Assembly (NCBI GenBank): GCA_977017645.1
Contig: OZ360234.1
Span: 60,884,001 to 60,948,000, forward strand
DNA from: Torpedo marmorata
Taxonomy: Eukaryota
Direction: 5' to 3'
DNA length: 64,000 nucleotides
Below, in pieces: positions 28,648 through 64,000 of the stretch (position 1 is its first letter; each line of letters begins with the position of its first letter). Below the pieces are notes generated by a model, which was not told the origin of the DNA, did not search any database, and was given only the letters and a program-made list of their open reading frames with translations. Position numbers and translations under genes: made by a program.

Positions 28648-28683
<36 letters not shown>

Positions 28684-39504: not shown

Positions 39505-39537
<33 letters not shown>

Positions 39538-39789: not shown

Positions 39790-42700
39790 TAACATCCAGA
39801 AAGACAATCAGCAATTACATTATCTTTCCCTTTTATATGAGTGATTACCAAATTATATTCTTGTAAAATTAGACTCCAATTCAACAACCGTCAATTCTTA
39901 TTTTTCATTTTACAAAGAAAAACCAATGGATTATGGTCAGTATACACTATGAGTGGTTTTTGAGCTGTACAGATATACACATCAAAGTGTTGTAGAGCCA
40001 ACACAAGAGCTAACAACTCTTTCTCTATAGTTGAATAATTCCTTTGATGATCATTGAACTTCTTCGAGAAGTAGGATACCGGATGTTCAATGTCCTCTTC
40101 GTTCTTCTTCTGTAACAGCACTGCACCCACAGCTTCATCGCTGGCATCCACGGCTAAAGAAAACGACTGTTCTAAATTAGGTGACTTAAGCACAGGTTGG
40201 TGGCATAACATGGCTTTCAATTTGACAAATGCTTCCTGACAACCTGTTGACCATACAAATTTTTCTTTCTTTCTAAGCAAATTTGTGAGAGGGAGCGCAA
40301 GATCAGCAAAGTTTTTACAGAACTTGCGGTAGTAGCCAATCATTCCCAGGAACCTCCTCAGAGTTTTCTTACCAGTTGGAACAGGGAACTCGGAAATAGC
40401 CACAACCTTTGCCTCTACTGGCGCCAACCTCCCCTGTCCTACTACATAACTCAGAGAATTAACAGTTCCATGACCCTCTCTGAAACTGGTTTTATCTGTC
40501 TCCTCCTTACCCCTGTCAATAACCAGTACCTCTGGTACATTTTCAGTCCCTTTGTGTGGCACCTGTTCAAAATACGGCTTAATCATATTCACATGACAGA
40601 CCTGTGTGTCTCGTCTGCGATTAGGTGTTTCTATGACATAGGTGACATCATTAAATTTTGACTTAGCTCTATAGGGTCCTGAAAATCTAGCCCTAAGAGG
40701 ATTTGAATGGATGGGAAACAGAACTAGTACGTTCTCACCAGGTTTAAAAGTTCTCATCTTTGCCTTTCGATCATACCAAACCTTCATTCTCTGTTGAGTG
40801 GCCTTTAAATTCTCCTATGTAACCGATCCTTAAATTTGGAAACATAATCGAACAGATTTAAATGCACATCACGATTAATCCACTGTTCTTTTAATAATCT
40901 TAAAGGACCTCTCACCTCATGTCCGAAAACTAACTCAAATGGACTAAAACCAAGTGAGTCTTGGACAGACTCCCTCGCTGCAAATAACAACAAATGAACC
41001 CCTTCATCCCAATCCTTTTCCTTCTCACAACAATAGGTTCTAATCATGGTTTTCAAAGTCGAATGGAACCTCTACAAGGCCCCTTGACTTTCTGGATGGT
41101 ACGCAGAGGATACAATCTGTTTAACTCCTAGTCCACCAACCACTTGTTGGAAAACGCCTGACATGAAATTACTGCCCTGATCTGATTGAATTTCCCTTGG
41201 CAAACCTACCAAGGTGAAAAACTTTACCATAGCCTTTACAATGGACTTTGCTTTTATGTTTCTCAGAGGAATGGCCTCTGGAAATCTGGTGGCTGCACAC
41301 ATAATTGTTAACAAATATTCATTCCCTGCTTTGGTTTTGGGCAATGGGCCAACACAGTCCACAATGACTCTCGAGAAAGGCTCACTGAAAGCAGGGATAG
41401 GTTGCAAGGGTGCCACCGGGGGACCCTGATTAGGTTTACCCACCACCTGACAAGTGTGACAGGCCCGGCAAAAGCTTACAACCTCCCTTCTCAAATTGGG
41501 CCAATAAAATTGTTTCGTTATCTTCCGTATAGTTTTCTTCACACCAAGATGACCACCTAAGGGTGTACTATGAGCCAAAGTTATTATTTCATCCCTATAT
41601 ACTTTAGGGATTACAACCTGCTGCACTACTGCCCATTCTTCATTGGCAGGAACATCACGTGGTCTCCACTTTCTCATCAACACCCCATCTTTTTCATAAT
41701 ACCCAACTGGCACCTTTTTAATCTCCTCTTCAGGGAGAACCTTATCCCTCACCTCAGCAAGATCAGGATCGTCCTTTTGCCTTGCTATTAACTCCTGTCG
41801 GGATAGTGACAAATCTGTGCCTTTAGGTGTCTTATCAGTGGATGGGTGTAACATAGGAGATTGCTCAACCTTTTCCAGGTTTTCTTGATTGTCAGTTTCT
41901 TTTTTTTTTACCAAGTTATTTTCCACTGCCTTCTCTACAGTGACATTTTTCTTAGACATGGCCCTGGTTATGGCACATGCCGAATAAATATCAGAGTCTT
42001 TCTCTGACTTATCAATGACTGGCTTAGTGGTCATTCGCACTGCAGGAACTACTTTACCCTTGGCCAAGTCATTGCCTAACAACAGTGAGACTCCTTCTAC
42101 TGGCAACTCTGATCTCACTCCTATTATAACTGGTCCTTCCACCAAGTCTGAGTGCAATACTATTTTGTGCAAAGGAATGGACTCTACCTCACCACCAATT
42201 CCTTTAATTAAATTTATGTCACCGGTGTCAGTAGCTTCACAAAATTCCAAGACACTATCTAACACAAGTGACTGAGCAGCTCCAGTATCTCGCAAGATTT
42301 TCACTGGAACTTGTTTTGATCCTGCCTTAACTGAAACAAAACCATCAGTCACAAAAGGTTTAAATACATCTTTAACTTTGTCAGTAAATTTATCTCCTTC
42401 CTGGGTGTTATACATCTTCTCACTCTGAATACAAGCATTAGGTGTTGCATCCTTTTCTCTCTTCTTTTTCAACACTGGACAGCTTGCTATCATATGACCA
42501 GCCTTCCTACAGTAGTGGCAAATGGGACCCGAATTGTTCTCCCTTTTCCACTTTCCTTCATCCCTTTCCTTAACACCACTTCCAAATTTACTTTCCACTT
42601 GCTTCTGATTATCCACCGTGTCCTTTTGGAAAATTCTACCTGACGTCCACTTAGGCTTGTGGGTTAAAGCATATTCATCTGCTAACTTAGCTGACTTTTG

Positions 42701-43567
42701 CTAAGTTTTCACCTCCTTTTCATCTAAGTATGCGTTAATATCCTCAGGAACACACCTTTTTATCTCCTCGATTATTATCAAATCTCTCAATTGATTGTAA
42801 TCATTGTTTACTTCCTTAGATGTGCACCACCTGTCAAAACACACAACTTTTTCATAGGCAAACTCTGTATAAGATTGGGTTGCTGATCTTTTTAAATTTC
42901 TAAACTTCTGTCTATAAGCCTCTTGAACTAACTCATAAGCCTGGAGTATAGCCTTTTTCACCGTTTCATAATCAGCAGCTTGCTCCATGGTAAGAGTACA
43001 ATAAGCTTGCTGAGCTTTTCCTTTAATTACACTTTGTAACATAAGAGACCATTGGTCTTGTGGCCATTTTAATTTCACAGCCACTTTCTCAAAATGTTGG
43101 AAGTACTTATCTATTTCTGCCTCCTCAAATGGAGGAACTAACCTAACTTCTCTACTAGCCAAAAACCCCTCAGCAGGATGACGAATTTGATTTGGGTGCT
43201 CTTCTTGTCTCCTCTCATTTTCCAACCTCATCTTTTCCAACTCATATCTCCTATTTCTCTCATCGTTCTCTAAGTCTAATCTCTTTTGTTCCAATTCCAA
43301 TTTCTTTAGTTCCAACTGTATGTTTTCAGAAGGTTTACCCTTGGAAAACTGCTCTAACACACTCTCCTCAAATTTTTTTTCTTTTATATAGTATTTGACA
43401 ATTTTTCTCCCAATCTCTGACTTTTTCATAGATGCTTTTACCGAAGCAATGCGCAACTCTGTTGCTATAGCCACTAACTGTTGCTTTTTCGCCTTTTTTA
43501 AAATATCAGGTTCAGGTGATTCCAAAAAATGTTCTACATCCATTGTTGCTGGTTTTTCGTTACACAC
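39790..43567 (-). pseudogene. gag-pol polyprotein remnant: Gag (coiled coil, SCAN-like capsid, CCHC), protease, integrase, RT C-terminal remnant/connection, RNase H
   Basis: ORFs 42701-43567, 41072-42616, 40805-41056, 39891-40787 separated by point stops or a small indel; LRDTGA, HSTPLGGH/CRAC HTC, VDCVGP-SDQGSNF-QGAL(E), AVDASD-ELLAL-YTDH. Confidence 0.92.
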
Positions 43568-43652
43568 ACATAGCTTTTAATTAGCTTTACAAAAGGAATG
43601 CCTTAAACCAAACTGGGATTCCTTCAATTACCAAGATGGATTTTGATTCAAA

Positions 43653-43670
43653 TCCTAGGACGAGCCCCCA
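43653..43670 (-). promoter_or_regulatory. tRNA-Pro primer-binding site
   Basis: TGGGGGCTCGTCC(TAGGA) 3 nt after the 5' LTR; matches the tRNA-Pro PBS TGGGGGCTCGTCCGGGAT; variants next to 24217 and 27906. Confidence 0.85.
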
Positions 43671-45467
43671 ATTTGTTACAAATTCAAACCAGCAATGACA
43701 GAAGACGCAATGCAAAAGGGGTAAAATTGAAATTTATATTTATTAAAGACAATTAAACATATAATTTCACAACAATTAACCCCACTATAAACGTCTATAA
43801 ACTCTATTCTTATCTAAAATGTGTGTGTGTAAAGCCCAGACCATTACAGTCTGTGCCCAATCCTTATGTAAAAATGGAAAAACTTTCCCTAAAAACCCCA
43901 GGTCAGTCATAAAAACAAGTCAGTCAAAAAAAGAGAATAATACAGTCCACAAAATCCACTCTCTAAGTTCAGGCTTCAAATTCAGCTGTGTCTGGTAGAA
44001 GTACTTCTGAATGAACGTTGGAGAGAGACAATGACTGTTTATGCTTACAAATACTTGTTTTCTTCTCTGATGTCGTCCCCTTCTTGGGTGTTCATAAGGA
44101 TTGTCTGTTCAGATCAGTATACCACTGATTTAGGCGTATGCTTGAATCTCACAGCTAGTCTCGCTGATCTCACGCCTGTTCTCCACAGAAGTTGCTTTTT
44201 CTCAGAATTTCTCTGAGACAGGAGGCCATGTGCTATTTTGCCAGATTTTCTCTGACTATGCACAAACCTGGATTTGGCTGTGTTCTGTAGCCTTTGCAAC
44301 TCACAACTGTGTGCTTTGCAGAGATCTGCCCCTGCTTTTTGCAAAAGTGCAACAATGTATCTTTTCTACAGTCTGTCTCTCTCTGCTCTCTCTCTCTCTC
44401 TCTCTCTCTGGGTACACCAAGTCCTGGGGAAGTTAACTTTTTCAGTACCTGGCCCCAGTGTGTACTCCAAAAGACTTCATCCTTCCTGCTGACCGTCCGC
44501 AGTCCAAATGGTCAGTCATGGTCCATAACACTATATTCTTACTTATTATCTTCCAAAATAAGAAGAGAGTTTAGGACTTCTTTTGGAAACTACTTTCACC
44601 AACTTGGTGAAATTAAACTCCAAAAAAAGTTCTAAACTCTCAGCTCATTTTGGAAAATAATAAGAACACAAGGAACAGGAGCAAGAGGATGCCATTTGGC
44701 CCATCATTCCTGCTCTGTATTTAATAAGGTCATGGCTGATCTGGCAATGGATTCAGCTCCACCTACATGCCTTTTCCCCTCAACTCTTAATTCCCCAACT
44801 GTGCAGAAATCCATCCAACTGTTCCTTCAAAATGTACGTGGGATATAGATTAATTGAGTGTAATTGGGCGTAAAATAAGTGGTAATTCTGCCTGGCCCAC
44901 AGGAAAAAGAATCTTAGGGTTGTATGTCATGTATGTACTATGACAATAAACCTGAACTGAACTTTTGAACATATGTCGGTCAGGGCCAGATCCCCACTTG
45001 GTACATGGAGTCCAGCATGGGGAAATGTTTCTGTCTATAACTGAACATGAAATGTGTCCTCCTGATATTCAAAATTTGCCATATATTCATCCCAGGTTAA
45101 GTATTTCAAATCAATAAAACTGCAACAAAATCTGCAGAAGATTATGTGCCTCTCAGCATCTCAAGGAACAGTAAAGATAGGCAATCAATGGTGTATTATC
45201 AATATTACTCAACTCAAAACATGTTACTGATGTTTGGTAATGTTTCATACAGGAAATAGTAGTATTGGGCCACAAGAGGGCACCATGGTGCTAAATAGAA
45301 TCTGGGATCAGTGAGATTTTGTATCAATCTCACAGAAGAATTGGATAAGGCCAAAAGATTTATTAAATTCAACCAGACCCAGTGACATAGTGCTGAAACT
45401 TCTCAATTTCATTACTTGGCTTTGAATGTAGCATTATTGGAAAATCTTTACAAGAAATGCACAATCT

Positions 45468-46703
45468 ATGTTCCATACGTTGATTCATTGTAGACACTTG
45501 ATCTGTTAAGTAATTTATAGCTTGAATAAAGGTAGTTGATATTTCTTGTTTACCTTGAAACAGCTGAGTTTCTTCTCCTCCACTTATCTCTTTCCTCTCC
45601 CTCCATCTCTTCTGCTTGTCTCTCCATTCCACCATACAGTTCTTTCTTTTTCCCTTTATCTTCTGAGTCAGTTGACGATGACCTTTCTTCTCCAACAATA
45701 TACTGAATTGAACGGCAGGTTCTTCTTTGGCTGTCAACCTCAGTTGACAGCTCCCGTTGCGTTTGGCTCATGCGCGTCATTTCACGCATGCGCAGTTGTT
45801 CCTTATCTTTTTGTAGTTCTCCAGTCTTCCTTCGAGCACCAGCGCTATCTTCCCCAGCTCCCCGGGAGGACGGCGCTGGCGTTACAATTGCCTTCCCCGT
45901 TCTCGTCTGCATCCCTCTGGGAGGGAGAGGAACTTGATCCCGAGGCTCCATCGCTAAGGTAGGCCGATCTTCTCCTTGAATTAAACTTTCTTTAAACACT
46001 GTTTTCTTTGACTTTTGCTCCTTCCCTTTTCTTGTAGTCACTCTTTAATCATTAACAAACACTCTTAACTTTTTTTTTAATAACCAGATAAAGTTTTATT
46101 GCAGTTTTTGATTAGTTCTGTAGGGAGAGGTGTATTTCCACGACTCCAACCTACGCCATCACGCAACCTCCTCCCAATAGATCCTATGATATTTTTGTTC
46201 GGAGATATTAAAAGAATTAGTATTAAGATGAAATTAAATATGTATCAAATAGAATTTTTGCGAATTGCTTTAGCTGTTTCTAAGAAATGTATTGCTATTA
46301 CATGGAAATCTGATGTAGATTTAGGGTTAGATAGATGGCATGCAGAACTTCGTTCAGCTATACCACTTGAAAAAATTACTTATAATTTACGTAATAAATA
46401 TCATTTCTTTTTGAAAATACGGAGCCCATATATAAAAACGGTTGGTTTAAGGATTTGAAGATTTCTGGATATCAGATCTGACTGGTGAACCTATCTTCTA
46501 CAATAAAATTAGTTTATAGTTATTCTTTTTTAGATTGACATTCTCCTTATTTTATCTTTTTCTTTCTTTCTTTTCCATTTTAGTAGATTAGTAGGGGTGG
46601 GAGGGTTAGGGGGGGGTGAAAATGTATCACATGTATTTTGATAATTTTGCATTTTATACAGTGTATTTTGTGATTTAAAAATTTTAAATAAAATATTAAA
46701 AAA
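45468..46703. mobile_element. L1 insertion with inverted 5' segment (5'UTR + ORF1 start, - strand, 45468-~46170) joined to the 3' end (+ strand, ~46171-46703)
   Basis: ORF 45550-46041 is homologous to ORF1 at 57075; 3' part is homologous to 62360-62880; 16-bp TSD AAGAAATGCACAATCT (45452-45467 / 46704-46719). Confidence 0.93.
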
Positions 46704-46894
46704 AAGAAATGCACAATCTCAGTTAAACACACCAGAAATTGGCAATGATTCAGAATTAATTAGTGTGCTTATGCCCTGACTTTCCAGGACCAGAAGCCTT
46801 TCAATTGCCTTGGATGATCCCTACCTAAACTGGTATTACCTAGGAAAGAAGGAAACTCTGAATTAATCTCAGGTTAAAAACCTAAGATCAGAAA

Positions 46895-47172: not shown

Positions 47173-47419
47173 GGTAAAGGTAAAGTAAAGGTTCCATTAT
47201 TGTCACGTAATACTACATTTAGAATGTAACATACATGAAATTCTTTTAATTTTTGTCTACTGTAAGGCAGACAAAGGGTCGCTATTTTGTCCAGCGCCCC
47301 TCAGAAACCTACAGCACCTGGTGTTCCTTGGTGGTCTCCCCTCCAAGTACTGACCAGTCCTGTGCCTGCTTAGCTTCAGAGATCAGACAATCCCAGTCGT
47401 ATTCAGGCTATTAGTGCTG
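47173..47419 (-). mobile_element. 5S rRNA-derived SINE (second copy)
   Basis: Reverse complement of 14485-14735 including 5S head, body and (CCTTTA)n tail. Confidence 0.85.
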
Positions 47420-48084: not shown

Positions 48085-50010
48085 TATTCATCACTTTGCA
48101 ACTGGATCCTCGATTTCATTATCAGCAGACTCCAAATTGTGCAGATCGGCAACATCTCACCCTCCACACTGACCATCAGGTCAGGGCCACCTCAAAGCTG
48201 CATGCTTCGGATCTTGGTCTATCCCCTCCACATTCACAATTGCGTTGACAAGTTCGGCTCCAACACAATCTATAAATATACTGATAACACCGCTGTTGTT
48301 GGATGAATAACGGGAAATGATGAGTTGGAATACAGGATGGAGATCGAGAATCTGGTTGTGCCAGAACAACAATTTTGCTCTGAACATCACCAAAACTAAT
48401 GAGTTAATTGTGACCTTTAGGAAGGAAAGGCCAAGGGATCACGCACCTTATTGACAAGTGTTACGTCGCAGACCAGCAGCAATAGAAATTCACCAAGAGA
48501 CTGTTATTGTTTTACTTTTAAAACAATATATTAACAACGACTAATAATATAACATCTTAATTAAATTTACCCCAACTATGCGTGAATATACGTGTGTGTG
48601 TTATCCAAACCATTACAGCTTAGGCACGATTCTGGGAAGTCAATCCAAAGTTCCAGTCTTAGAAATCCTGTGTTGAAACTCAGACTTTTATACTGATGCC
48701 CAGAAGTAATCAAGAAGGAGGTGGGAGAGAATCCTTGTCGAGTTTCTTCCTGAGAAATATCCTTTTGGACGAACGGTTGTCACAATTCCCCTTTTCCTTT
48801 CGTAGGGGAAACGAAATGCGTGACTTCCACAATGCTTCCAAAACCCAGGCACGGGTCAGTCGAAATGAGCATCACCTTTGGTCACAATCCGATGCAGCAA
48901 TTCTTCTACTTTCAAAACCCAGATACGTGTCAAGCAAAGTGACCTTTCCTTTGGTCACGGTGGTTCAATAATTCCCCTGACAGGGAGAATCAGCCGAAGT
49001 GTCCATTTCACTCAGAGTCACTCCACCTCCGTGTTCTTCAGATGGCTGGTGGTCAATAATGAATGCTGTTCCCTTAAGTATCCCACTCACATGACTCTCT
49101 CACCACCTGTGTTCCTGAATAAACAACCATTGTTCTTTCTCTTCCTTCAGAGTATCACTTTGGGTATAATCTGTACTTGATGGTGCCATCCAGCCTCTCC
49201 ACAACTGTGAATGGTTGCAGCCTGTACTAACCCTTAAAGTGACAGTCACACTAAATGAAACAGGAGCTCGTAATACAAGAGAGATGAGGCTCTTGGGAGT
49301 CCACATATCGGAGGACCTCTTCTGGAGCCAACACATTAAAGCAGCTGTGAAGAAGGCACACCAACACTTCTACTTTCTAAGAAGTCTGAGGAGATTTGGC
49401 CTGTCATTAAATACTCCATCAAACCTCTACAGGTGTACTGACTGGTTGCATCACAACCTGGTTTGGAAACTTGAGTGCCCAGGTATGCAGAAGACAACAG
49501 AAATTGGCAAACCTAGCTGCCATCACAGGCACCGACCTCCCATCCATTGATGACATCTACGTGAGACGCTGCCTCAAGAAGGCAAAAAACATCATAAAGT
49601 GCCCCTATCACCCTGGTTACCACCTCTTCTCATTTCTACCTTTAGGCAGAAGATACAGAAGCCTGAAGTCCAGCACCCTCAAGATTCAACAGTTTATATC
49701 CAACAGCTCTCAGGGTCTTAAACCTCCCCATACTATCTTAAACCTCCCCCTAACCATAAGTTAGAGTAGGACCACCAAACGATAATTAGTCTAGGACCAC
49801 CAAAAGATCTGAAACATCACTTTTTTCTTTTGCACTAACTACATTAATTCTATTATCTATTTTTTTCTGTCTAGGCCTGTTGTGGTAATTTAATTTATAC
49901 TATTGTAGTTACTCTATCTTAGGTACCTGTTTGGCTGCAGCAAGTAAGAAATCTGGTGCAGCTGCACATTTCTGTACTTATGTAATGACAATAAACTAAT
50001 TTCATCTAAT
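48085..50010 (+). mobile_element. Old Rex1/Babar LINE relic interrupted by a solo LTR
   Basis: [50 protein letters not shown]; GACAATAAA tail at ~49987. Confidence 0.8.
48459..49275. mobile_element. Solo LTR of a third family
   Basis: TGTTACG...CGTAATA inverted termini (terminal CA mutated); 4-bp TSD CAAG (48455-48458 / 49276-49279); splits the Rex1 relic cleanly. Confidence 0.8.
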
Positions 50011-50442
50011 TTTGTCAAATTCAATTAAACCAATCTTTGTATGATTCTGTGTGCAGAATGGGTAATCTTACCTTTAACATTAATCTGTCCAATTTCAGGA
50101 AATCTTTCTGACAATCTGACTTTAGCACAACACAAGAAGACGAAACCCCATTTCTAGATATTATTTCTTTCTTTCAATATTTAGTTCCTCTGTTCAGTAA
50201 ATATTGGATTAACTGAAATTTAGGCTGTACGAAAGGTTTCATAGAATCATAGTGAGATAAGGCATGGAAACAATCTCTTTTTCCCATTCACGCTAATATG
50301 ATATAAAGCTCATGTTTTTTTAAAAATTTATTTTTAATTTAGACATACGAGTCCACGCCACCCACATTATTCTCCCCACATTCTCTTCAATCCTACTCCC
50401 ACAGATTCTACCATTCATCTACATCCCAAGCACAATTACAGT

Positions 50443-50880
50443 AACAAATTGTCTACCAGCCCATACTATATGTCTTTGGAATATGGGAATAAATCACATC
50501 CCATGTTTATTATGGAGAACGTTACATCCTCCTGCACTTACTTTCTGAAAGAGCGGTGCTATCTTATGAGCTCTCAGCTGCACTGAGTTAATGAGAGGTC
50601 TATGGGTGGGTAAAGGAAAACCAATCCCAATACAGTAAAACCCATGTAATCCAGAGTTAAAGCAACCGGCAGCCTCAAGCTACCAGCAAAAAAAAAATCG
50701 AGGAAAATAAATTTAAAAAATTTAAAATAAATCAGAATAAAATAATAGGTAAAAAATACATAAGTTTAAAATTGTAAAAGTAAATGTTCTCTGAAGTAAC
50801 ACATAAACCTTTGGTGAAGATGGGTGCAAATATTCAGCCAGCGGAGTGCATTGGTCGTGCTTTGCTCATAGCATCTGTTT
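50443..50880 (+). repeat. Left copy of a ~438-bp direct duplication; right copy = 56556-56944 plus 62906-62953
   Basis: Collinear match with about 20 differences by eye. Confidence 0.93.
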
Positions 50881-53800
50881 TTTTTCTTTCTAAATATTTT
50901 TATTGAACTTTGAATTTTACATAAGTAAACAGATATATTCAGAAAATTTGTAAAATACACAACTGAGATGTCAAATATAAAGAAATCAACAGAGTTATCT
51001 AATTTATAAAGTACATCTATTAAGTAACAAAACATCTTACAATTTTATCCTGAATGTTATATTTTTATTTTCTCCCCCATCTCTTGAGCCCATTACCAAG
51101 TCGAAGTTATATAATTAAAGTATGCCTTGTACCTGGAGTTATATAATAAAATGTTGGAAGACAGGTTTTATAATAAAACTAGAGGTTCTGAAAGTAGCTC
51201 AGGAAAGGTCCCCATAGGTTTTGAAACCTTATGTCTGAGTCACTAACAGAATAACAAATCTTTTCTAGATTTAAACAGGACATAATATCCCTCAACCACT
51301 GAGCATGAGTGGGCGGGGCAGCATCCCTGCATTTTAGTAATATCGCACGTCTGGCCAAAAGAGAAGCAAAAGACAGAACCTGAGATTTAATTGGAGTCAA
51401 ACGGACGTCATCCTCTCCAGTGATACCAAAGAGGGCAACCAGAGGGTTAGGTTCGAGGTTTAAATTAAGGATTAAGGATAGGGTTTGGAAAACATCCCTC
51501 CAATATTTTTCAAGGCAAGGGCACGTCCAAAACATATGAATGAGAGAGGTCTCATCTCTCTTACATTTATCGCAACAGGAATTTACATCTGGATAAATAT
51601 GAGATAATTTAGCTTTAGATATATGAGCTCTATGCACAACTTTAAATTGCAACAAACAATGATGGGCACAGAGGGATGTGGAGTTAACCAATTTAAGGAT
51701 TAAATCCCAAACCTCATCAGAGAATGAAAGGCTTAAGTCCTGTTCCCATACAGATTTTATTTTATCAAGAGGGGCAGTCCTTAAACCTGCCAGTTTATCA
51801 TAAATCACTGATATTAAACCTTTAAGAGTCGGTTGTAAATTAAAAAACACATCAACAATATTCGTATCAGGTACACCAGGAAAGTTAGGTATCTGAGAGT
51901 GGAGAAAATGTCTGATTTGCAAGTATCTAAAAACATGGGTATTTCGTAAATTAAACTTTTCAGAAAGTTGTTCAAATGATGCAAAGCAATTATCAATGAA
52001 AAGATTTTTTAAAACACTTAATACCCAGTCTATACCATTCTTGAAATGCAGAATCGTGCAAAGAAGGTTGGAAGAAATGATTGGATAGAATAGGGCTTCA
52101 AAGAGAGAAACCATAAAATCCAAAATGTTTTCTGAATTGGGCCATATCCTTACAGTGTGCCTAACAACTGGATTATCAATAGATTTATCTAAGGAAAAAG
52201 GAAGTGAGGATCCAAGAAAAGCTGGAATGGAGAGATTTTTAGCTGTGCGCAGCTCCATTGCTACCCACAATGGACAGTCAAGTCGTTTATGAAAGTGTAT
52301 CCAAAACATAATGTTGCATATATTAGCTGCCCAGTAATAAAATTGGAAATTAGGCAGCACCGTACCTCCATTTCTTTTAGATTTGTGAAGGTGAACTTTA
52401 CTTAACCGAGATCGCTTACTCTTCCATATATAGGACGATATAATAGAGTCTAATGAGTAAAAAAAAGATTTACGAATAAAAGTTGGTATTGTCTGAAAAA
52501 GATATAAAAATTTAGGCAAAATATTCATTTTGATAGAGTTAATGCGGCCCACCAAAGATGTGGACAAGGGTGACCACTGCGTTAAATGCTGTTTCACCTG
52601 TTTTAACAGGGTAAGAAAATTTTCTTTAAAAAGACACATGTTTTCTTGTAACTGTAATACCTAAATAAGTAAATTGTTCTTTCACAACCTTAAAAGGAAA
52701 GTTAGTATACATTGATGCAGTTGTATTCACAGGGAACAGTTCACTTTTATGCAAATTTAGTTTGTACCCTGAAAACTGTCTAAATTGAGTAAGTAACGAC
52801 AACATAGAAGGTCGGGAGGTTTCAGGGCTTGATATAAAAAGCAAAAGATCATCTGCATAAAGGGAAACTTTATGTTTCACTCCCTTCCTCCAAATCCCTA
52901 GGATGTCCTCGCAGCTTCGAAATGCAATTGCTAATGGCTCTATAGCCAAATCAAAAAGTAATGGACTTAGAGGACACACTTGTCAGGTTCCCCGTTGGAG
53001 ATTAAAAGGTTGTGACTGTTGAAAGTTAGTGAGAATTGAAGCAGTAGGGCACAAGTACAGTAATCTTATCAATGCAATAAAACTTGGACCAAAATTAAAT
53101 TTTTCTAACATCGCAAATAAATACCTCCACTCCACACGGTCAAATGCTTTCTCCGCATCTAAAGAAAGGACACAATCAGGAACCACACCTGAGTGTGAGT
53201 ATAAAATTTCAAATAAGCGACGTATATTGAAATAAGAGTATCCATTTTTAATAAAGCCGGTTTGGTCCTCGGATATAATGATGGTAAAATATTCTCCAAT
53301 CTACAGGCCAAAAGTTAGCCAAAATTTTAACATCTTCATTTAATAAAGAAATTTGCCTGTAGGAGGAGCACTCTATAGGACCTTTGCCTTTCTTTGCAAT
53401 AAGAGAAACACCAGCCTCATTAAATGATGCTGGGAGCTTACCTTCCTTAAACGAATCAGACAACACAAAACTTAAATAAGGTGAGAGCAAAGTAGAAAAT
53501 GATTTAAAAAATTCCACAGGAAACCCATCGGGACCCGGTAATATTGCAGATTGCAAAGAGGAGATAGCCGCAGTTATCTCTATTTGTGACATAGATTCAC
53601 CTAATCTCATTTTGTTATCTGGAGAAAGCGTGGGAATATTTAAACAATTTAAAAAATTCTCCATCTAACTATTACCATTCTGAAATTCAGAAGTGTAAAG
53701 TCAGGAGTAAAAATTCCTGAATGTGTCATTAATCTTGGAGTGATCCGAAGTAACATTACCATCCTCCATTTTAATTTTTGTAATTTGCCGTCTTGTTTCA

Positions 53801-56555
53801 AATCCTCTCAACTGATTAGCTAACAACTTGCCAGATTTATCACCGTGAATATAGAACAGACTCTTATTCTTCAAAAGTTGTATGTGTTGAGAGAAGATCA
53901 AATTTAGCTTGAAGTTCCAATTGCTTTTTATATAATTCTGGATTTCTAACTTAAGCGTATTGATGATCTATTTCTTTAATTTGATTAAATAATTCCAAAC
54001 GTTCTTTATTAGCCCTTCTTTTCATATTCACGGTATTGGAGATAATTTGCACCCTTAGGTAGGCTTTCAATGCATCCCAGACAATCAGACTGGAGGTTTC
54101 TGAAAAAGGCATTTGTACTAAAGAAAAAGGTTATCTGCTTCTCCATAAATTTCACAAAATCACTATCAGACAGTAAAGTCGAATTGAAACGTCAGTGTCT
54201 ATTTATTTTAGGAAGGTCAGGAAGGGTCATAGATAGTACAATAGGGGCATGATCAGATATCAGTATACTCTTGTAGTCACAAGAGCGAGTCAATGGGATT
54301 AATTGATTATCAATAAGAAAATAGTCAATCCTAGAAAAAGTATGATGATCATGTGAAAAGAAAGAATACTCTCTTATATTTGGATAAAGAAAACGCCATA
54401 CGTCAAAAATACCATAATCTGATAGAAAGGATTGAATAAATGAGGTGGACTTACTCACTATTGCAGGGTTAGGAGAAGATCGATCCATCACAGAATCAAA
54501 CCAACAATTGAAATCTCCACCAAGCACAAGAGAGTATGCATCCAGATCAGGGAAAGAAGAAAAAAAAATTTCAAAAAACCCCTCATCATCCACATTAGGG
54601 GCATAAACGTTAGTGAGAACCACCAATTTAGTATACAGTTTCCCTGAGACAATAATGTAACGACCATTAGTATCTGATATTACATTGTGATGAACAAAGG
54701 GAATATTTTGATTAATAAGAATCGAGGCCCCCCTAGCTTTTGCCTGAAAAGTGGAGTGAAAATGCTGCCTCCTCCACCGTGCCATGAGACGCGAAGTATC
54801 AGAGCTACGAATATGTGTTTCTTGTAAAAAAGAAATTGCTGTTTTAAGTTGTTGAAGATGAGAAAGAATTTTCTTTCTCTTAACAGGATGGTTTAATCCT
54901 TTAACATTCCAACTAACAAAATTTTAAAAATTATCTATTGTCGATGATTAGAGAAGTGAGTTGAAAAAAAGACATGTTAACAAAACTCCAGGTGTTGGCC
55001 TTGAAGCAAGAACAGAGCATACAGCAAATATTCAAATAAAAACAACGCACAAGGACAAAGCTCATGTATTCGCCTAACACAATAACAACCTTGAAAAGAC
55101 CCACTCCTACCCACCCATCTTCCCCGCTCCCACCCGAAAACCAGACAGCTGCCCAAGACCCCAGCAGCAAGCTCATTGAACCAAACATTTCTCACCCAAA
55201 AAAAATCTTCCTGTCCCATGTAATAACATATTGGCTCCAATAATGTTATTAAAACAAAACTCTGCACTCCGAAAACAATATATAACTTGAATCGGAATAC
55301 AACCATTTATAAAAAAACAACTACTTTTAGAATTTCTTATACAATTCTAAAAAGTATATTACGAAATAGAAATATAAACTGCTACTAGAAAAACTAAGTA
55401 TAAACTTTCCCCAATGTTTTTCCCACTAAGACTGAATAAATCCCAGAATTTAAAGGAAAAAAAACTCACAAAACAACAGTCCAAATGGGTATATTACCCC
55501 ATAAAGTGTTACCAGAACAGAGAGGACCAGACAGTCCTCGCCACTAAATACTGTATGACAAAAGCTATAAAGCTTCAAAATAGTAATAGTCAAATAGCCT
55601 CAGTCACCAAGAAAATATTTACGAAGGGTGCAAAGTGGAAGGGAGACCATCTATATCATTCCGGGCCTCAACGACTGAACGAAACCACTTTTTGCGTCCA
55701 CTGGTGAGTGTGATACGGAGTTGTGCAGGATACAGCAAGGAGGGCTTAAATCCTCGGTTGTATAATTCTGACATTACTTCTCTCTACTCAGCTCGCTGAT
55801 TCACAACTTCAGGAGTATAATCTTCCACCACTCGGATCTGTTGACCATGATATTCCAGTTTCCCTCTCCGCCGGACCTCACGGATCAGAGTGTCCTTTAT
55901 CTGATAGCAATATAAGCGAATGATAATCGAGCGTGGTCTCTGTCCTGGAGCCAGTTTAGGCACTAAAGAGCGGTGAGCTCAATCGATCTCCGACGGGGAT
56001 GGAAGTGTCTCCTTCCCGAAAACCTCACATAACAAGTCAGATAAAAATTTTGTAGGTTGCCCTCTTTCAGTAGATTCTGCCAAGCCCAAGATATGCAGGT
56101 TCTGTCGTCTGCTCCGGCTCTCCAGATCAACAACTTTAGTCATTAACTTTGAATTACTTTCACATAAACTGGAGCAGACATTTCTAATTCAGTAACACGT
56201 TGGCTTAGGTTTTCAGAAGCGTGCTCCAGAGATAACAAACGCTGGCCGTGCTCCACCACAAACGACCGGATATGATTGATTTTGACCGAACAGGCAAAGA
56301 GAAGCTTTGAAGTCAGCAGTCTGTCGATCCAGTAGGGTAGAAATAGCCTCTATTGTTAGACTAGCAGTCGTTTCTTCTTTTTCTTCTTTTTTCACAGATT
56401 TCCCACTTCTTGAAGTCATTTTGAAGCAAACAAGAGTAAAAGCTGCAAAATATATAACACTTTGGTTGTAAAATAGAAAGGTAAAAAGTGAAAAAGATAG
56501 AGAGTAGACAGAAGCTCCTGATAGTTGCGTCTACACCATATCACAGCTGGCCAGA
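50881..56555 (-). mobile_element. Full-length but degenerate L1-clade LINE
   Basis: ORF1 start 56419 (MTSRSGK; SRRQNL-ILGL motif), APE endonuclease (SWNVKGLN, LQETH, GGDFN, SRIDYF, ISDH), RT (LDAEKAFD, LYADD), CDKC..H..C; many stops and frameshifts; A-rich tail at 50881. Confidence 0.93.
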
Positions 56556-57074
56556 AACAAATTGTCCACCAACCCATACTGTATGTCTTTGGAATATGGG
56601 AATAAATCACATCCCATGTTTATTGTGGAGAACGTTATATCTTCCTGCACTTACTTTCTGAAAGAGCGGTGCTATCTTGTGAGCTCTCAGCTTCACTGAG
56701 TTAATGAGAGGTCTATGGGTGGGTAAAGGACAACCAATCCCAATACAATAAAACCCGTGTTATCCAGAGTTCAAGCAACCGGCAGCCTCAAGCTACCGGC
56801 AAATAAAAATCGAGAAAAATAAATTTTAAAAATTTAAAATAAATCAGAATAAAATAAAAGGTAAAAAATACATAAGTTAAAAATTGTGAAAGTAAATGTT
56901 CTCTGAAGTAACACATAAACCTTTGGTGAAGATGGGTGCAAATAGGGGCGTGGCGTGATGGCGTAGGTTGGAGTCGTGAAATACACTCCTCCCACAGAAT
57001 TAATCAAAAACCGTAATTTAAAACTTCATCTAACTATTCAAAAGTAGTTAAAACTCTTTCTTAAAGAATAAAGA

Positions 57075-58565
57075 ATGACTACAAGAAAAGGTAAAGATCA
57101 GAAGACAAAGAAAGCAGTGTTAAAAGGAAGTCCAACTCTAGTAGAAGATAGGCCTAACTTAGCGATGGAACCTCGGGATGAAGTTCCTCTCCCTCCTCGG
57201 AAGATGCAGACTCGAATGGGTAAGCCTGTAGTGACGCCAGCGCTGTCCTCCCGGGGAGCTGGGGAAGATGGCGCTGGTGCCCGGAAGAAAACGGGACTAC
57301 AGAAAGAACCCGACGCAACGCGCGTGTGCGAAATGACGCGCTCGATTGAAAAACAACGGGAGCTGCCAGCTGAAGCTGACAGCTCAAAAAAATCACCTCG
57401 TTCGATTCAATATATTGTTGGAGAGGAGGGTTCATCATCATCCTCAACGGATTCAGAAGATAAAGGAAAGAAGAAGAAACTGTATGTAGAATCTGAAGGA
57501 GAATTAGAAGACATGGAGGGAGAGGAAAGAAATATAATTGGAGGAGAAGAAGCCTATTTGTTTCAAGGTAAACAAGAAATTTCAACTACTTTTATGCAAG
57601 CATTGAATTATTTAACAGATCAAGTGTCTACAATGAATCAACGTATAGAAAATGGATTTAAAGCTATGGATACTAATTTTACACAATTTAGGGAAGAAAT
57701 AAAAGATATTAAACATAATATGAAAAAGAATTCAACTACTGTGGATAAAGTTGTATTGAAAGTTCAGAAAGTTGAAAATGATGTTAAAGAATGTCGTGAT
57801 GAGGTGGTGGATTGTAAAGATACAGTGGACAAAATGGAAAATTCATTTACAGCCTGGGAATTACAAAAAAATCAACTTTTACAAAAAATAGACACATTGG
57901 AGAATCAAAGTCGTAGAAATAATGTTAAAATTGTGGGACTTCCAGAAGATTTTGAAGGGATGAATCCAACTGATTTTTTTCAAGAATGGATTCCAGCTAC
58001 TTTGGGTATTGAAAATTTTCCTTATGGTCTGGAACTGGATAGAGCTCATAGAGATAATAGAAGGAAACCATATTCTGGTCAAGCGCCACGCTCAGTGTTA
58101 ATTAGATGTCTTCGTTACCAGGATAAAGAGAAAATATTAAGATTGGCAGTTCAAAATGCGAGAGAGAGAAAAGCTCCATTGATGATTAATAAAAACAGAG
58201 TATTTTTTTATGCAGATTTGAGTGCAGTAATAATTAAAAAACGCAAAGAGTTTAATCCAGCTAAAGCAATTTTTTGGAAGAAGGGGTATAAATTTTCTTT
58301 TAGATATCCTGCGATATTGAAAGTTCAGTCTCGAGACAATCAATCAAAGTTTTTCACGGATTATCAAGAAGCTTTGGAATTTGCTAATACGTTGCCAAAT
58401 ATAAAACAAGATCAAGATTTGCCTGGCTACCCTCAAGTCAGTATACCTATTCAAGACTTGTTACACTTGACGGAGAATCTTCAAGTACCTCCACGAAGAG
58501 ATGAATTGGTTGAATTGACCGATGAGCAAGTTAATAGAGATTTGGAAGAAGCTGGACTTGGATGA
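57075..58565 (+). CDS. L1 ORF1p (496 aa): long disordered N-terminus, coiled coil, RRM/CTD
   Basis: LENQSRRNNVKIVGLPE, LELDRAHR, PRSVLIR, FYADLS, RYPAIL motifs of L1 ORF1. Confidence 0.92.
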   Translation: MTTRKGKDQKTKKAVLKGSPTLVEDRPNLAMEPRDEVPLPPRKMQTRMGKPVVTPALSSRGAGEDGAGARKKTGLQKEPDATRVCEMTRSIEKQRELPAEADSSKKSPRSIQYIVGEEGSSSSSTDSEDKGKKKKLYVESEGELEDMEGEERNIIGGEEAYLFQGKQEISTTFMQALNYLTDQVSTMNQRIENGFKAMDTNFTQFREEIKDIKHNMKKNSTTVDKVVLKVQKVENDVKECRDEVVDCKDTVDKMENSFTAWELQKNQLLQKIDTLENQSRRNNVKIVGLPEDFEGMNPTDFFQEWIPATLGIENFPYGLELDRAHRDNRRKPYSGQAPRSVLIRCLRYQDKEKILRLAVQNARERKAPLMINKNRVFFYADLSAVIIKKRKEFNPAKAIFWKKGYKFSFRYPAILKVQSRDNQSKFFTDYQEALEFANTLPNIKQDQDLPGYPQVSIPIQDLLHLTENLQVPPRRDELVELTDEQVNRDLEEAGLG

Positions 58566-58857
58566 AGAATTGACATTAATTTGTTATGTAAATTCTGTTG
58601 GGGGGGGTGGACTTTTTGTCTTCTCCGTACCTAACCACATACCACTTTAGTGGCGAGGGCCACTTCCCGAACAGAAGAGGGGGGGTAATACTGGTGTAAA
58701 TTACCAGTAATTTTATATTGGGTTTTTCTTTTTAGTTTTTTATTATCTTCTTTTTTTTTTCTGTCTTTATCTTTGTTTAAGGAGATGTCAAGTTTATTAC
58801 AAATGTGGAAAGGGGTACCGGCTGGCCTGATGAGGAGAAAATTATTAAATATTAGTA

Positions 58858-61800
58858 ATGGCGGATAGTAAGCTAATAAATGTTGTAAGTATTAATATAA
58901 ATGGGCTAAATAATCCGATTAAACGGAAGAGAACTTTGGCATATATTAAGAAGTTAAAAGTTGATATTGCTTTTTTACAAGAGACGCATTTGACAGAGGC
59001 AGAACACCAGAAATTGAAAAGAGATTGGGTTGGTCAAGTGGTTGCGTCCTCATTTAATTCTAAAGCAAAAGGAGTTGCTATTTTAATTAATAAAAAGCTA
59101 CCTTTTAAGTTACAGTCTGTAGTTTTAGATGTTTCAGGTAGATATGTTTTAATAAATTGTCAGATATATTCAGAAATGTGGACACTTATGAATATATATG
59201 TGCCAAATACGCAAGATGAACAATTTATTCAAGATTCTTTCATGCATTTATCAGAAGCAAATGAGAATATCTTAATCGGTGGAGACTTCAATTGTTGTTT
59301 TGATCCGATACTAGATAAAACATCAAAGTCAATTATTAGAACTAAAACTGCAAAAAAAATTATTTCTTTGATGAAAGATTTAAATTTAATTGATATTTGG
59401 AGGAAGTTGAATCCAAGAGAAAGAGACTACTCTTTTTATTCTTTTAGGCATGATTCTTATTCTAGAATAGATATGTTTTTATTATCATCTCATCTACAAG
59501 ATAGAGTTACTCAAATACAGTATAAAGCAAGAATAATTTCTGATCATTCGCCTTTAATAATGTCATGTATAATTCCTGAAAAGGAGAAAATTGCTTATAG
59601 ATGGAGATTTAATTCTTCCTTATTGAAAAGACCGGATTTTTGTAATTATATAAGAAGAGAAATTCACGAATTTTTACAGATTAATTCTAATTCGGTTGAT
59701 AATAAATTTATTATTTGGGAGACTTTAAAGGCTTATTTAAGAGGTCAAATAATAAGTTATTCAGCAAAGGTTAAAAAAGAATATGTTCAGGAATTAGATA
59801 AATTGGAAAAGGAGATTGAATTTTTGGAGAAAGATTTACAAAAGAAAAGATCAGAGGAGAAAAAAAGGAATTTGATTGGAAAAAAATTGTATTATAATAC
59901 GTTACAAACATATAAAATGGAGAAAGTAATTGAAAGAACTAAGCAAAGATATTATGAATTGGGAGAAAGAGCACATAAAGTATTGGCATGGCAATTAAAG
60001 AAAGAGCAAACTTCTAGAACTATAAATGCTGTTAAAAAGAATTCAAAGAAAATAACGTATAAACATCGGGAAATAAATGATTCTTTTAGGGAATTTTATG
60101 TAAATTTATATAAATCACAAACTGATAAAGATGATTTTAAAATTAATGCATTTTTATCAAAAATTAAGTTACCTAGATTGAATACTCAAAACAAGGAATT
60201 TTTAGATTTACCATTTACGATGAGAGAAGTTAGTGAGGTTCTTAGTTCTTTAACAAATGGAAAGTCTCTGGGTGAAGATGGTTTCCCATCAGAATTTTAT
60301 AAGGAATTTAAAGACGTATTGATACCCCCATATATGGAGGTGTTAAAACAAATAATGGAATCTCGCTCTTTACCGGAAACATTTTCGAATGCAATAATAA
60401 CAGTTATACCCAAAAAAGACAGAGATGTGTTGAAAACAGAATCATATAGACCAATTTCATTGTTAAATGTGGATTATAAGATAATGGCGAAAATATTGGC
60501 AAATAGACTTGCCAAATATTTACCAGATTTAATTCATGAGGATCAAGCAGGTTTCATTAAGAATAGATATTCAAAAGACAATATAGCTAGGTTAATTAGT
60601 TTAATAAATGTGGCGCAAAAGAAAGAGGAATTAGCATTAGTTTTAACATTAGATGCTGAAAAGGCTTTTGATAGACTAGAGTGGAATTATTTATTTAAAG
60701 TATTGGAAAAATTTGGTTTTGGAATTACATTTATTAATTGGATTAAAACTATATATAAGGAACCTTCTGCTAGGGTGGTTACAAATGGACAAATTTCTTC
60801 AAAGTTTTTGTTGACTAGGTCGACACGGCAAGGATGCCCGTTGTCACCTGCATTATTTGTTTTAGCAATTGAACCTTTGGCAGAATTAATTAGACAAGAT
60901 GTTAAGATTGTGGGTATTAAAGTTGGAAGGGAAGAACATAAGATTAGTTTATTTGCAGATGATGTATTGATATATATGATAAAACCTATTACTTCTTTAA
61001 TACAATTGGATGTTTTATTGAAAGAATATGGGGAGATATCTGGTTATAAAATTAATTCTGATAAAAGTGAAATTATGGCGTTAACACAAGGGGATTATAA
61101 TAAATGTAAGGAAATTACACAATTTAAATGGTCAAAAGAAGGAATTAAATATTTAGGTATAAAGATAGATACAAAACTAGTTAACTTATATAAACTAAAT
61201 TATTTACCATTATTTGTGAAAATCAAAAAGGATTTAGAAAGTTGGAAAGATTTACCTATAACTTTAATAGGAAGGGTAAATTGTATTAAAATGAATGTCT
61301 TTCCAAGAATTCAATATCTTTTTCAATCAATTCCTTATGAAATTCCTCAGAAATGTTTTAAAGATTTAAATTTAATTATTAGGAAGTTTTTGTGGAAGGG
61401 TAAATTGGCGAGAGTAGCTATGGAGAAATTAACTTGGAATTATGATTTGGGTGGTTTACAACTTCCTAATTTTCAAAATTATTATAAAGCAGCTCAATTA
61501 GGATTTATTAACGAAATGTTTGATTCAGTAAAATCTTCTGCTTGCAGTCGAATAGAATTAAATAATATAGGAGAAGATTTGAAAGAAGAAGTTATTTATA
61601 AATGGAATTCTAAACAAATATTATTAAGAGGTAAAAATTCTCCTATTTTTAGACATTTGTTAGAAATATGGAATAGATTGGATAAAGAGATAGGAACGAA
61701 AGGTTTAATTTCCCTAAGAATGCCTATATATCAAAATAGACTTATTCCATTTGCTTTTGATAATCAATTATTTAAAATTTGGTTTCAAAAGGGAATTAAG

Positions 61801-62523
61801 AAAATAAATGACTGTTTTGAAGCTGGTAAATTTATTACTTTTCAAAGAATGAAAGATAAGTTTAATATATTAGACAATACGTTCTTTGCCTATTTCCAAA
61901 TTAAAGCATTTTTAGTTGAAAGGTTGGGTCATAGTTTGACTTTACCTCGACAAAGTGAATTTGAATTATTAGTTACAAATGGAGGTGTAAATAAGTTTAT
62001 TTCTCAAATGTATAAACTATTACAGAGGAAAATGCCTAAAGTAGCTATTCACAAATCAAGATTAAAATGGGAATCAGATTTGAATGTAATAATAGAAGAA
62101 AAGCATTGGAAAGAATTATGTAAACTAAGTATGACTAAGATTATTAATGTTAGATATAGATTAGTGCAGTATAATTTTTTCCATCAATTATATTTAACAC
62201 CTAAAAGATTAAAGAAATTTAACCCGACATTATCAGATTTATGTTTTAGATGTAATAGGGAGGAAGGTTCTTTTGTACACTCTACATGGTTTTGTCCAAA
62301 GATATATGATTTTTGGTTGAAAGTTAAAAAGTTTTTAGATAAAGTATTAAGAATTACACTCCCAATGGATCCTATGATATTTTTATTTGGAGATATTAAA
62401 AGAATTAGTATTAGGATGAAATTAAATATGTATCAAATAGAATTTTTGAGAATTGCTCTAGCTGTTGCTAAGAAATGCATTGCTATTACTTGGAAGTCTG
62501 ATGTAGATTTGGGTTTAGAATGA
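58858..62523 (+). CDS. L1 ORF2p (1221 aa): APE endonuclease, RT, Cys-rich domain; premature TGA removes the last ~40 aa
   Basis: NINGLN, LQETH, GGDFN, SRID, SDH; YRPISLLN, LDAEKAFD, RQGCPLSP, FADD; CFRC-x8-H-x4-C; reading frame resumes after the TGA to ~62646. Confidence 0.95.
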   Translation: MADSKLINVVSININGLNNPIKRKRTLAYIKKLKVDIAFLQETHLTEAEHQKLKRDWVGQVVASSFNSKAKGVAILINKKLPFKLQSVVLDVSGRYVLINCQIYSEMWTLMNIYVPNTQDEQFIQDSFMHLSEANENILIGGDFNCCFDPILDKTSKSIIRTKTAKKIISLMKDLNLIDIWRKLNPRERDYSFYSFRHDSYSRIDMFLLSSHLQDRVTQIQYKARIISDHSPLIMSCIIPEKEKIAYRWRFNSSLLKRPDFCNYIRREIHEFLQINSNSVDNKFIIWETLKAYLRGQIISYSAKVKKEYVQELDKLEKEIEFLEKDLQKKRSEEKKRNLIGKKLYYNTLQTYKMEKVIERTKQRYYELGERAHKVLAWQLKKEQTSRTINAVKKNSKKITYKHREINDSFREFYVNLYKSQTDKDDFKINAFLSKIKLPRLNTQNKEFLDLPFTMREVSEVLSSLTNGKSLGEDGFPSEFYKEFKDVLIPPYMEVLKQIMESRSLPETFSNAIITVIPKKDRDVLKTESYRPISLLNVDYKIMAKILANRLAKYLPDLIHEDQAGFIKNRYSKDNIARLISLINVAQKKEELALVLTLDAEKAFDRLEWNYLFKVLEKFGFGITFINWIKTIYKEPSARVVTNGQISSKFLLTRSTRQGCPLSPALFVLAIEPLAELIRQDVKIVGIKVGREEHKISLFADDVLIYMIKPITSLIQLDVLLKEYGEISGYKINSDKSEIMALTQGDYNKCKEITQFKWSKEGIKYLGIKIDTKLVNLYKLNYLPLFVKIKKDLESWKDLPITLIGRVNCIKMNVFPRIQYLFQSIPYEIPQKCFKDLNLIIRKFLWKGKLARVAMEKLTWNYDLGGLQLPNFQNYYKAAQLGFINEMFDSVKSSACSRIELNNIGEDLKEEVIYKWNSKQILLRGKNSPIFRHLLEIWNRLDKEIGTKGLISLRMPIYQNRLIPFAFDNQLFKIWFQKGIKKINDCFEAGKFITFQRMKDKFNILDNTFFAYFQIKAFLVERLGHSLTLPRQSEFELLVTNGGVNKFISQMYKLLQRKMPKVAIHKSRLKWESDLNVIIEEKHWKELCKLSMTKIINVRYRLVQYNFFHQLYLTPKRLKKFNPTLSDLCFRCNREEGSFVHSTWFCPKIYDFWLKVKKFLDKVLRITLPMDPMIFLFGDIKRISIRMKLNMYQIEFLRIALAVAKKCIAITWKSDVDLGLE

Positions 62524-63265
62524 TGGCATGCAGAACTTCGTTCATGTATACCACTTGAAAAAATTACTTATAATTTACGTAATAAATATCATTTCTTTTT
62601 GAAAACATGGAGCCCATACATAAAAGCGGTTAGTTTAAAAATTTGAAGATCTCCAGAGATCAGATCAGACTGGTGAACCTATTTTCCACAAAAGATTTGG
62701 CTGATAGTTGTTTTTTTTTAGACACTCTCCTTATTCTATTTCTTTCTTTTCTTTATTTTTAGATTAGTGGGGGTGGGAGGGCTAGGGTGGGGAGAAAATG
62801 TATCACATGTATTTTAATAATTGTATACTTTGCCTTGTGTATTTTGTGATTTAAAATTTTAAATAAAATATTCAAAAAAAACAAAAAAAAAGATGGGTGC
62901 AAATAATCAGCCAGCGGAGTGCATTGGTCGTGCTTTGCTCATAGCATCTGTTTGAATAAAGTTGTGTGAAACAGCAATGGCGTCGCTCCAGGATGAAGAG
63001 CTGGTTGATGCCGCTCGCCGTTAGGGTGACTCTCTTAATGTGTCTCCTTATCGCTGCTTAGTAATAGTCGCCCCGGTCAGAGGCTTTATCTTTAAACTTG
63101 GAGGAGAGGGAGGTTAATTATCTATAATGTTATTGTTTGTCTTTCGGGCAGCTCCGTGGAGGGGGAGGAACCTGCAGATGCATGTTAAATGTTTTCAAAG
63201 AATGTAACCGAAAATAAAGTAAAATTAAGGTTTACATATTCATGCATGTTCAGTGTAAGTACAGT

Positions 63266-64000
63266 ATAACATAGAACATTGCAGCACAGTACAGGCCCTT
63301 CGGCCCTCAATGTTATGCCAATCTATATATTCCAACCAAAAAAATACTAAATATTTCCTACCTTATAACCCTCTATTTTTCTTTCATCCATGTACCTGTA
63401 TAAGAGTCTCTTACATGCCCCAAATGTTTCAGCCTCCACCATTATCCCTCGCAAGGCATTCCAGGCAACTCTCTGTGTAAAAAAAAATACCCCTGATGTC
63501 TCCCCTAAACTTTCCTCCCTTCATTTTATAGAGATGTCCCCTGGTGTTTATTATTCCTGCCCTGGGAAACAGGCGCTGGCTGTCCACCTTATTTATGCCT
63601 CTCAGAATCTTGTAGACCTCTATTAAGTCTCCTCTCATCCTTCTTCGCTCCAAAGAAAAAAGTCCCTGCTCTGCTAACCTTGCTTCATAAGACTTATTTT
63701 CCAATCCAGGCAACACCCTGATAAATCTCCTCTGCACCCTCTCCATAGCTTCCACATCCTTCCTATTATGAGGTGACCAGAACTGAACACAATTCTCTGT
63801 GTGGTCTCACCAGAGGTTTGTAGATTTGCAACATGACCTCTCGACTCTTGGAACTCAACCCCCCTGTTAATGAAGCTCGGCATCCCATAGGCCTTAACTA
63901 TCCTATCAACCTGCACGGCAACGTTGAGAGAATCCAAACGTCCCTCTATTCCTCCACACTGTTAAGTATCCAACCATTAACTCTGTATTCAGCCTTCTGG
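63266..64000 (-). mobile_element. CR1 LINE 3' part (continues beyond the window)
   Basis: MERVQRRFIRVLPGL, LFSLERRRMRGDLIEVYKILRG, TRGH motifs; (TTCTATG)n-type tail. Confidence 0.85.

Follow-up and report, generated by a model that had tools for sequence, protein, structure and literature searches.

A full-length L1 of Torpedo marmorata bracketed by a 438-bp direct repeat, probably a long target-site duplication

The stretch analyzed here (the window) comprises 64,000 nt of the Torpedo marmorata assembly GCA_977017645.1 (contig OZ360234.1, forward strand 60,884,001-60,948,000), and all coordinates below refer to it. About 17 kb beyond the stop codon of an INPPL1-like gene, amid long interspersed nuclear elements (LINEs), short interspersed nuclear elements (SINEs) and long terminal repeat (LTR) elements, it holds a decayed full-length L1 on the minus strand (50881-56555) that is bracketed by two copies of a 438-bp direct repeat. 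We refer to this unit as B, to its upstream flank as A and to its downstream flank as C. The left copy of B (50443-50880), a candidate long target-site duplication (TSD), abuts the poly(A) of the L1, and the right copy begins at the L1 5' end and is split by a second L1 into its first 389 bp (56556-56944) and its final 48 bp (62906-62953). A first-pass annotation of the same DNA had described this bracketing of a minus-strand L1, with the left copy ending at the poly(A) and the right one starting at the 5' end, and the present analysis confirms it; its coordinates for the right copy also imply the second, plus-strand L1 (56945-62889), which its text does not name.

Judged from search matches to ORF1, ORF2 and both ends, the bracketed element is an L1-clade LINE. 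It consists of a 136-nt 5' untranslated region (UTR), open reading frame (ORF) 1 beginning at 56419, ORF2 at about 54923-51179 with six stops and seven frameshifts, an AATAAA motif at 50904-50899 and a short A tail at the 3' end. ORF1 matches human LINE-1 ORF1p structures (E 5e-12) and Pfam Transposase_22, the latter just under its cut-off (E 5.5e-4). In ORF2, Exo_endo_phos (the apurinic/apyrimidinic, APE, endonuclease) is matched with E 6e-11 and RVT_1 on two pieces, and the C-terminal part matches L1 ORF2p only (E 1e-29); none of 13 candidates among viral contigs was a relative of ORF2. In its length the 5' UTR is similar to the 0.14-0.16 kb reported for L1s of frog and fish in PMC5381506 (here and below, the literature is cited for the passages of each source that were covered). 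The 5' terminus (56517-56556, minus strand) carries motifs like those of published fish, frog and lizard L1 starts: its first bases resemble the zebrafish and lizard starts of PMC5381506, and two frog motifs lie near their published 30 and 40 nt, a comparison that uses the motifs of other vertebrates, from which this family's own end may differ. By its sequence, the L1 appears complete at both ends. Since the published start motif overlaps the edge of the repeat by about 1-3 nt, the left boundary of B is uncertain by a few bases; past the annotated boundary, the 5' joint shows one mismatch and then three matches, a weak microhomology of possibly 1-3 nt.

Self-BLAST aligned 50439-50832 with 56552-56944 at 94.4% over 394 columns (E 2e-174) and 50817-50880 with 62890-62953 at 98.4% over 64 nt. 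Once the nested L1 had been removed from the right copy together with one of its two TSD copies, the two copies of B (438 and 437 nt) differed by 21 substitutions (12 transitions and 9 transversions) and one gap, with a Kimura two-parameter distance of 0.050. The coordinates of the first-pass annotation proved exact, and its figure of about 20 differences holds. This similarity is far beyond chance. The differences are evenly spread over B (P 0.76 and 0.30) and give no sign of gene conversion between the copies; the last 103 bp hold just one difference, which had made gene conversion a candidate, yet this is not significant. Unit B begins with AA and ends with TT, and its tail-side end reads CTGTTT/GAAT, the putative first-strand nick, at which the final 48 bp of the right copy end. 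No second repeat of at least 6 nt links the two junction regions, and the 438-bp unit is therefore the only candidate TSD. Flank A resembles SINE copies of the window and B starts with a SINE-like stretch, which partly supports the earlier suggestion that the left copy continues an upstream SINE; however, alignment across the A-B join brought a significant gain for none of the six SINE copies of the window, A plus B equalling A alone for four of them and giving a small gain for two, matched by 66 and 119 of 300 shuffles. An Rfam search of 49500-64000 gave no match, and a tRNA search likewise found nothing.

The younger L1 nested in the right copy of B (56945-62889, plus strand) is full-length and belongs to another family. 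Its ORF1 is open (496 aa), its ORF2 has one premature stop and matches human ORF2p with E 1e-172, and its 16-bp TSD, at 56929-56944 and 62890-62905, is identical at 16 of 16 positions. Two unrelated L1 families lie about 50-60 bp apart in one copy of a high-copy transposon-like repeat (50817-50880 / 56929-62953), by chance or possibly through a target preference like that of Tx1-like LINEs, which insert at a fixed site of a repeat; the contig matches listed for the relatives described below include no flanks of further copies of these families. The first-pass annotation had credited the other L1s of the window with short TSDs, and this was found for four of the five (15-18 bp); the exception is the oldest neighbor, an L1 at about 36010-38240, for which no TSD was detected. 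The nick contexts are GTTT/GA for the 438-bp case and TCTT/CA, GGTT/GA, TCTT/GT and TTTT/GT elsewhere, with TT/G at four of the five L1 sites of the window (the TTTT/GT site was read by eye from its flanks). The TGTTT/GAA context noted earlier is thus present as described, but GTTT/GA lies closer to the TT/G tendency of this window than to the human TTTT/AA rule with which it had been compared.

Contigs of two related organisms show what B is made of. Five sequencing runs were found, one of organism A (X1, word share 0.41) and four of organism B (word share 0.08, one sample), the latter share being by itself no evidence of distance. Four of them (X1, X2, X4 and X5), from at most two samples, were aligned as contigs to 50250-56555, which holds one copy of B; depth in these data is not copy number. 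The distal part of B (50631-50880, plus strand) is the left portion of a very high-copy repeat, its bin reaching a depth of 843,826 in X1 and of about 91,000-101,000 in X2, X4 and X5, with 1,229-156,091 in the L1 bins of X1. Near 50630, where copies of this repeat start, their flanks are mixed (agreement 0.37 over 93 records in X2). The start reads TA and then CAGT, which we take to be the end of a Tc1/mariner-pogo-like transposon; the far end of the repeat was not found within the window. In all four runs (64, 227, 227 and 231 records) the copies continue beyond 50880 as flank C, whose start (62954-62983, plus strand), the native extension of the repeat, agrees with them at 26-29 of 30 letters by eye. 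Because contigs of the repeat family leave 50880 reading as flank C, the B-C join is native, and the tail of the L1 severs the high-copy repeat. A metagenome scan for the B-C join gave six matches, all by chance and of 22-27 nt only.

Three further observations concern the repeat itself. At 50846, 76-79 records per organism-B run exit it with another, GC-rich continuation, a second subfamily. Small terminal-inverted-repeat elements with TA ends lie at 33741-33829 and at about 243-740, and the first has an end in common with the repeat in B. A promoter-like reading of the CpG-richer region at the B-C join (observed/expected 0.83, 62954-63260) was rejected, as the region is the high-copy repeat.

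The proximal part of B (50443-50630) is SINE-like and then low-copy DNA, continuous with flank A. The A-B join is spanned by one organism A contig (X1; 50375-50677, 303 nt, of which 68 in A and 235 in B, with 17 letters differing), and it is native in this organism. At 50468 there are two contigs in X1 and none in X2, X4 or X5, compared with 53 at 50939 and 32 at 56413 in X1. Proximal B is thus low-copy while the L1 ends are multi-copy, and therefore B is not carried by the L1 family; its recurrence beside this family at other loci, which the first-pass annotation had named as evidence against a TSD, is disfavored. Both X1 contigs at 50468 bear the letter of the right copy and could be two alleles or two copies. 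At 50825, the two copies of B share a private letter that differs from the repeat family, so that they derive from one local copy. Two other identities of B were rejected. An LTR would not start with AA and end with TT instead of TG and CA, nor be a mosaic with a low-copy part, and the element inside is an L1 rather than an integrase-type pol; L1 3' transduction does not fit a unit that continues into flank A, natively so in organism A, and no short TSD was found.

The two copies of B give a repeat clock of 2.4% per copy (confidence interval, CI, 1.5-3.6%). For the bracketed L1, the six stops in 1243 aligned codons of ORF2 give 3.3% (CI 1.2-7.3%), and the seven frameshifts in 3.7 kb are of about the same order as the one gap in 2 x 438 bp. 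Six or more stops at 2.5% have a probability of 0.29, which is compatible with equal ages. The nested L1 is younger, at 0.3% (CI 0-1.7%), as nesting demands. The ages of the L1 and of the repeat agree within wide error.

Based on the two native joins, the lack of a short TSD, the completeness of the L1 and the agreement in age, we consider it likely that the 438-bp duplication was made at the insertion of the L1, in one event. B is probably a true TSD: four features of one are found here, whereas for an empty site with one copy of B the evidence is indirect, each join being seen in separate contigs, and for an equal age the measures are divided. The ancestral site would have read A-B-C, and an L1 ribonucleoprotein would have nicked it at the B-C join (GTTT/GA). 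Reverse transcription, primed on the T-rich end, would have copied the entire RNA, and the end of the cDNA would have been joined about 438 bp away, at the A-B join, instead of about 15 bp away, giving A-B-L1-B-C. The second end may have come from a distant second-strand nick to which strand displacement extended, with subsequent fill-in; alternatively, B may have been copied by repair synthesis that started at the free end. These variants yield the same product and are indistinguishable from sequence. Of the giant TSD proposed by the first-pass annotation, the duplication at insertion thus holds as the best reading, but that the two were one event, and that a distant second-strand cleavage supplied the second end, is what we infer, with repair synthesis an equivalent source. 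The event would have taken place in the germline, the B copies and the L1 would then have decayed neutrally, and the younger L1 would later have entered the right copy.

Several points weigh against a duplication made at insertion. Among the matches listed, beyond which lie 802 joints, 9369 loose ends and 89536 pieces, no contig spans A-B-C or either joint between B and the L1. Sites at which at least 40% of the depth differs from the window number 371 of 6306 in X1 (5.9%) and 414-425 in X2, X4 and X5 (6.6-6.7%), a figure of about 6% that is an upper bound, as it pools older subfamilies of other organisms at 80% likeness. An L1 divergence of 6% is also compatible with the stop count (P 0.09), which uses a guide protein of about 26-45% identity, making the counts of breaks approximate. 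Three of the six stops coincide with listed differing places, and the other three are not among the 40 of 523 such places listed. For the clock to hold, the duplication and the L1 must be of the same age, and the value of about 6% leaves room for an older L1; the two-copy clock suggested earlier is thus consistent with the stop estimate (2.4% against 3.3%) and not with the comparison to pooled relatives. In the literature, full-length L1s nearly always have 10-20-bp TSDs and the long TSDs of HeLa cells accompanied 5'-truncated inserts (PMC2912911, PMC4245944), and inherited L1s show canonical TSD sizes only (PMC4805530). Since canonical sizes are thus the rule for inherited and full-length L1s, the prior for a long TSD is low.

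The higher divergence of the L1 would be explained if it came first, entering at the B-C join with a normal TSD, and if a later template switch or unequal exchange on the empty allele or the sister chromatid connected its 5' end with the beginning of B, replacing the short TSD. Both the 5.9-6.7% against pooled relatives and the stop estimate of 3.3% exceed the 2.4% of the repeat clock, and the possible 1-3-nt microhomology at the 5' joint points the same way. We nevertheless regard this course as improbable, as in an element of 5.7 kb the break must land no more than about 3 nt from the 5' terminus and the stops are compatible with equal ages (P 0.29, as above). An identical arrangement, in which the L1 ends are intact and a further short TSD is absent, could also result from unequal crossover between two L1s of one family and orientation, 438 bp apart on different haplotypes, which would leave a hybrid L1 between two copies of B; a related 'pseudo-TSD' model has been put forward for HML-2 (PMC5488345). 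Such a crossover is very unlikely here: it demands that one family inserted twice, independently and at the same time, within 438 bp, with a full-length copy among the two, and apart from this L1 the window holds a single similar piece, at 64% identity. Just as unlikely is a prior tandem duplication whose first unit the L1 entered, deleting target across the unit junction and leaving a pseudo-TSD. Target deletions are known with L1 and LINE insertions (PMC5223499, PMC2666801), and no empty ortholog is found among the matches listed, but two rare events are required, and the divergence of the B copies should then predate the L1, which by both age measures is of equal or greater age.

We see little chance of an assembly artefact joining two haplotypes or loci at repeats. 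An origin from the organism of the window is not demonstrable for either set of runs (best share 0.41), and in data from single-cell and bulk capture, TSDs that seemed large turned out to be chimeras (PMC4805530). However, the 22 differences between the copies of B are evenly spread and amount to about the same divergence as that between the window and organism A (17 of 303), one of the copies carries a nested L1 with a perfect TSD, and both joints fall at L1 termini. Hardly credible at all is that B belongs to the element, as a terminal repeat or transduced DNA, or was produced by a DNA transposon within B. B does hold one end of the high-copy transposon-like repeat. However, its proximal part has few copies and both L1 ends have many, it is pieced together from SINE-like, low-copy and transposon DNA, the transposon end (50631) coincides with neither breakpoint, and there is no second A tail or short TSD.

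An insertion-time duplication of this size has counterparts in cultured and cancer cells. Servant et al. (PMC5223499) describe, in human cells, insertions with a poly(A), an endonuclease-type nick and a duplication of hundreds of bp, as found here. TSDs of more than 100 bp made up up to 10% of HeLa L1 inserts and 57-91% of those in lines deficient in nucleotide-excision repair; the tables of that study include cases of 242-516 bp and up to about 6.8 kb, and its Table 1 gives GTTT/g for a clone with a 1735-bp TSD. It proposes a distal second nick, referring to Gilbert 2002/2005 and Symer 2002. The inserts described there are new, engineered, about 2-4 kb long and in cultured cells, whereas the present one is old, inherited, full-length and in a non-mammalian vertebrate, with 5% between its copies. 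Tandem duplications of 1-10 kb at L1 insertions in cancers and L1-induced clones, taken as large TSDs (bioRxiv 10.1101/2024.12.14.628481), have an architecture equal to that of the 438-bp case, and replication from the free end was proposed for them. For the zebrafish element ZfL2-2 in wild-type chicken DT40 cells, one of 25 inserts had a 1228-bp TSD (PMC2666801), a long LINE TSD in repair-proficient non-human cells that differs from ours in its L2 clade and in the use of cultured cells. Inherited HERV-K (HML-2) sites with TSDs of 111 and 250 bp, and a putative one of 450 bp (PMC5488345), are of similar size and meet the same pseudo-TSD doubt, but they arise by an integrase mechanism and their empty alleles were sequenced.

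Canonical L1 insertions share with this locus the structure of the element, the tail and the nick site, but the duplication is about 30 times longer than theirs, which peak at 14-16 bp (PMC2912911, PMC4245944), a rule obeyed by the four neighbors in the window that could be measured. A TSD of 10-20 bp was found in all but two of 66 full-length elements (PMC4245944), and the genome survey of PMC2912911 covered TSDs of 5-30 bp only and was hence blind to a longer class. In the literature, where coverage of subscription journals was thin, we found no inherited L1 whose TSD reaches hundreds of bases, which is weak evidence of absence; the passages covered of PMC8934628, PMC8567694 and 10.1101/522623 mention no long L1 TSD. 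By analogy, the locus probably behaves as do the large-TSD insertions seen in cultured cells and cancers, a known error rather than a new kind of element. It is notable for being old, inherited, full-length and non-mammalian.

The remainder of the window is likewise rich in mobile elements. At 45452-46719, an L1 has shrunk to about 1.2 kb by an extreme 5' inversion within a 16-bp TSD: an inverted segment, the first 700 bp with the 5' UTR and the beginning of ORF1, meets the last 540 bp almost directly, as in twin priming, but the inverted part extends to the 5' terminus and about 4.7 kb are lost. The region 15100-28800 is a multi-level nest, in which a plus-strand L1 (19366-21665, 17-bp TSD) lies within an LTR element (16957-25102), this in a minus-strand L1 (about 16846-27503, 15-18-bp TSD), and the latter in a further LTR-element remnant. 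Two LTR elements (38777-44531 and 16957-25106) have a SCAN-domain gag, with 13 differences over 859 sites in one LTR pair and 23 over 886 in the other. In one of these elements the integrase is succeeded by RNase H and then a p58/SH3 piece, and among the ORFs scanned there is no reverse transcriptase match. A 247-bp element occurs in two copies of opposite orientation (14489-14735 and 47178-47419; 92% alike), and one of its ends resembles what is presumably the head of a 5S rRNA-derived SINE. The INPPL1 (SHIP2)-like gene is represented by its last exons (29357-33278), a long proline-rich exon and two exons (31413-31526 and 33189-33278) that encode a SAM domain, the first of which best matches SHIP2/INPPL1. 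These exons mark the window as vertebrate DNA, and its types of repeat suggest a cartilaginous fish.

The significance of the 438-bp repeat is bounded by its being a single intergenic locus with no sign of function, from which the mechanism is undecidable. Little is understood of how L1 insertion cuts and joins the second strand (PMC5223499, PMC4245944), and long TSDs have so far been regarded as peculiar to HeLa or repair-deficient cells; an inherited case argues for the pathway in the normal vertebrate germline. It had been expected that such repeats might be recombined away (PMC5223499), and the repeats described here argue that long duplications can persist without loss by recombination. 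The locus also dates one L1 copy without a consensus and, as the first-pass annotation suggested, might mislead LTR finders. A bolder idea, to which we give only a small chance, is that long-TSD insertions of full-length L1s are a recurring germline class in this lineage, overlooked because TSD searches end at about 30 bp. If so, the distant-second-end pathway of HeLa, repair-deficient and cancer cells would operate in normal germ cells, hundreds of host bases would be duplicated per event, and LINEs would come with LTR-like clocks.

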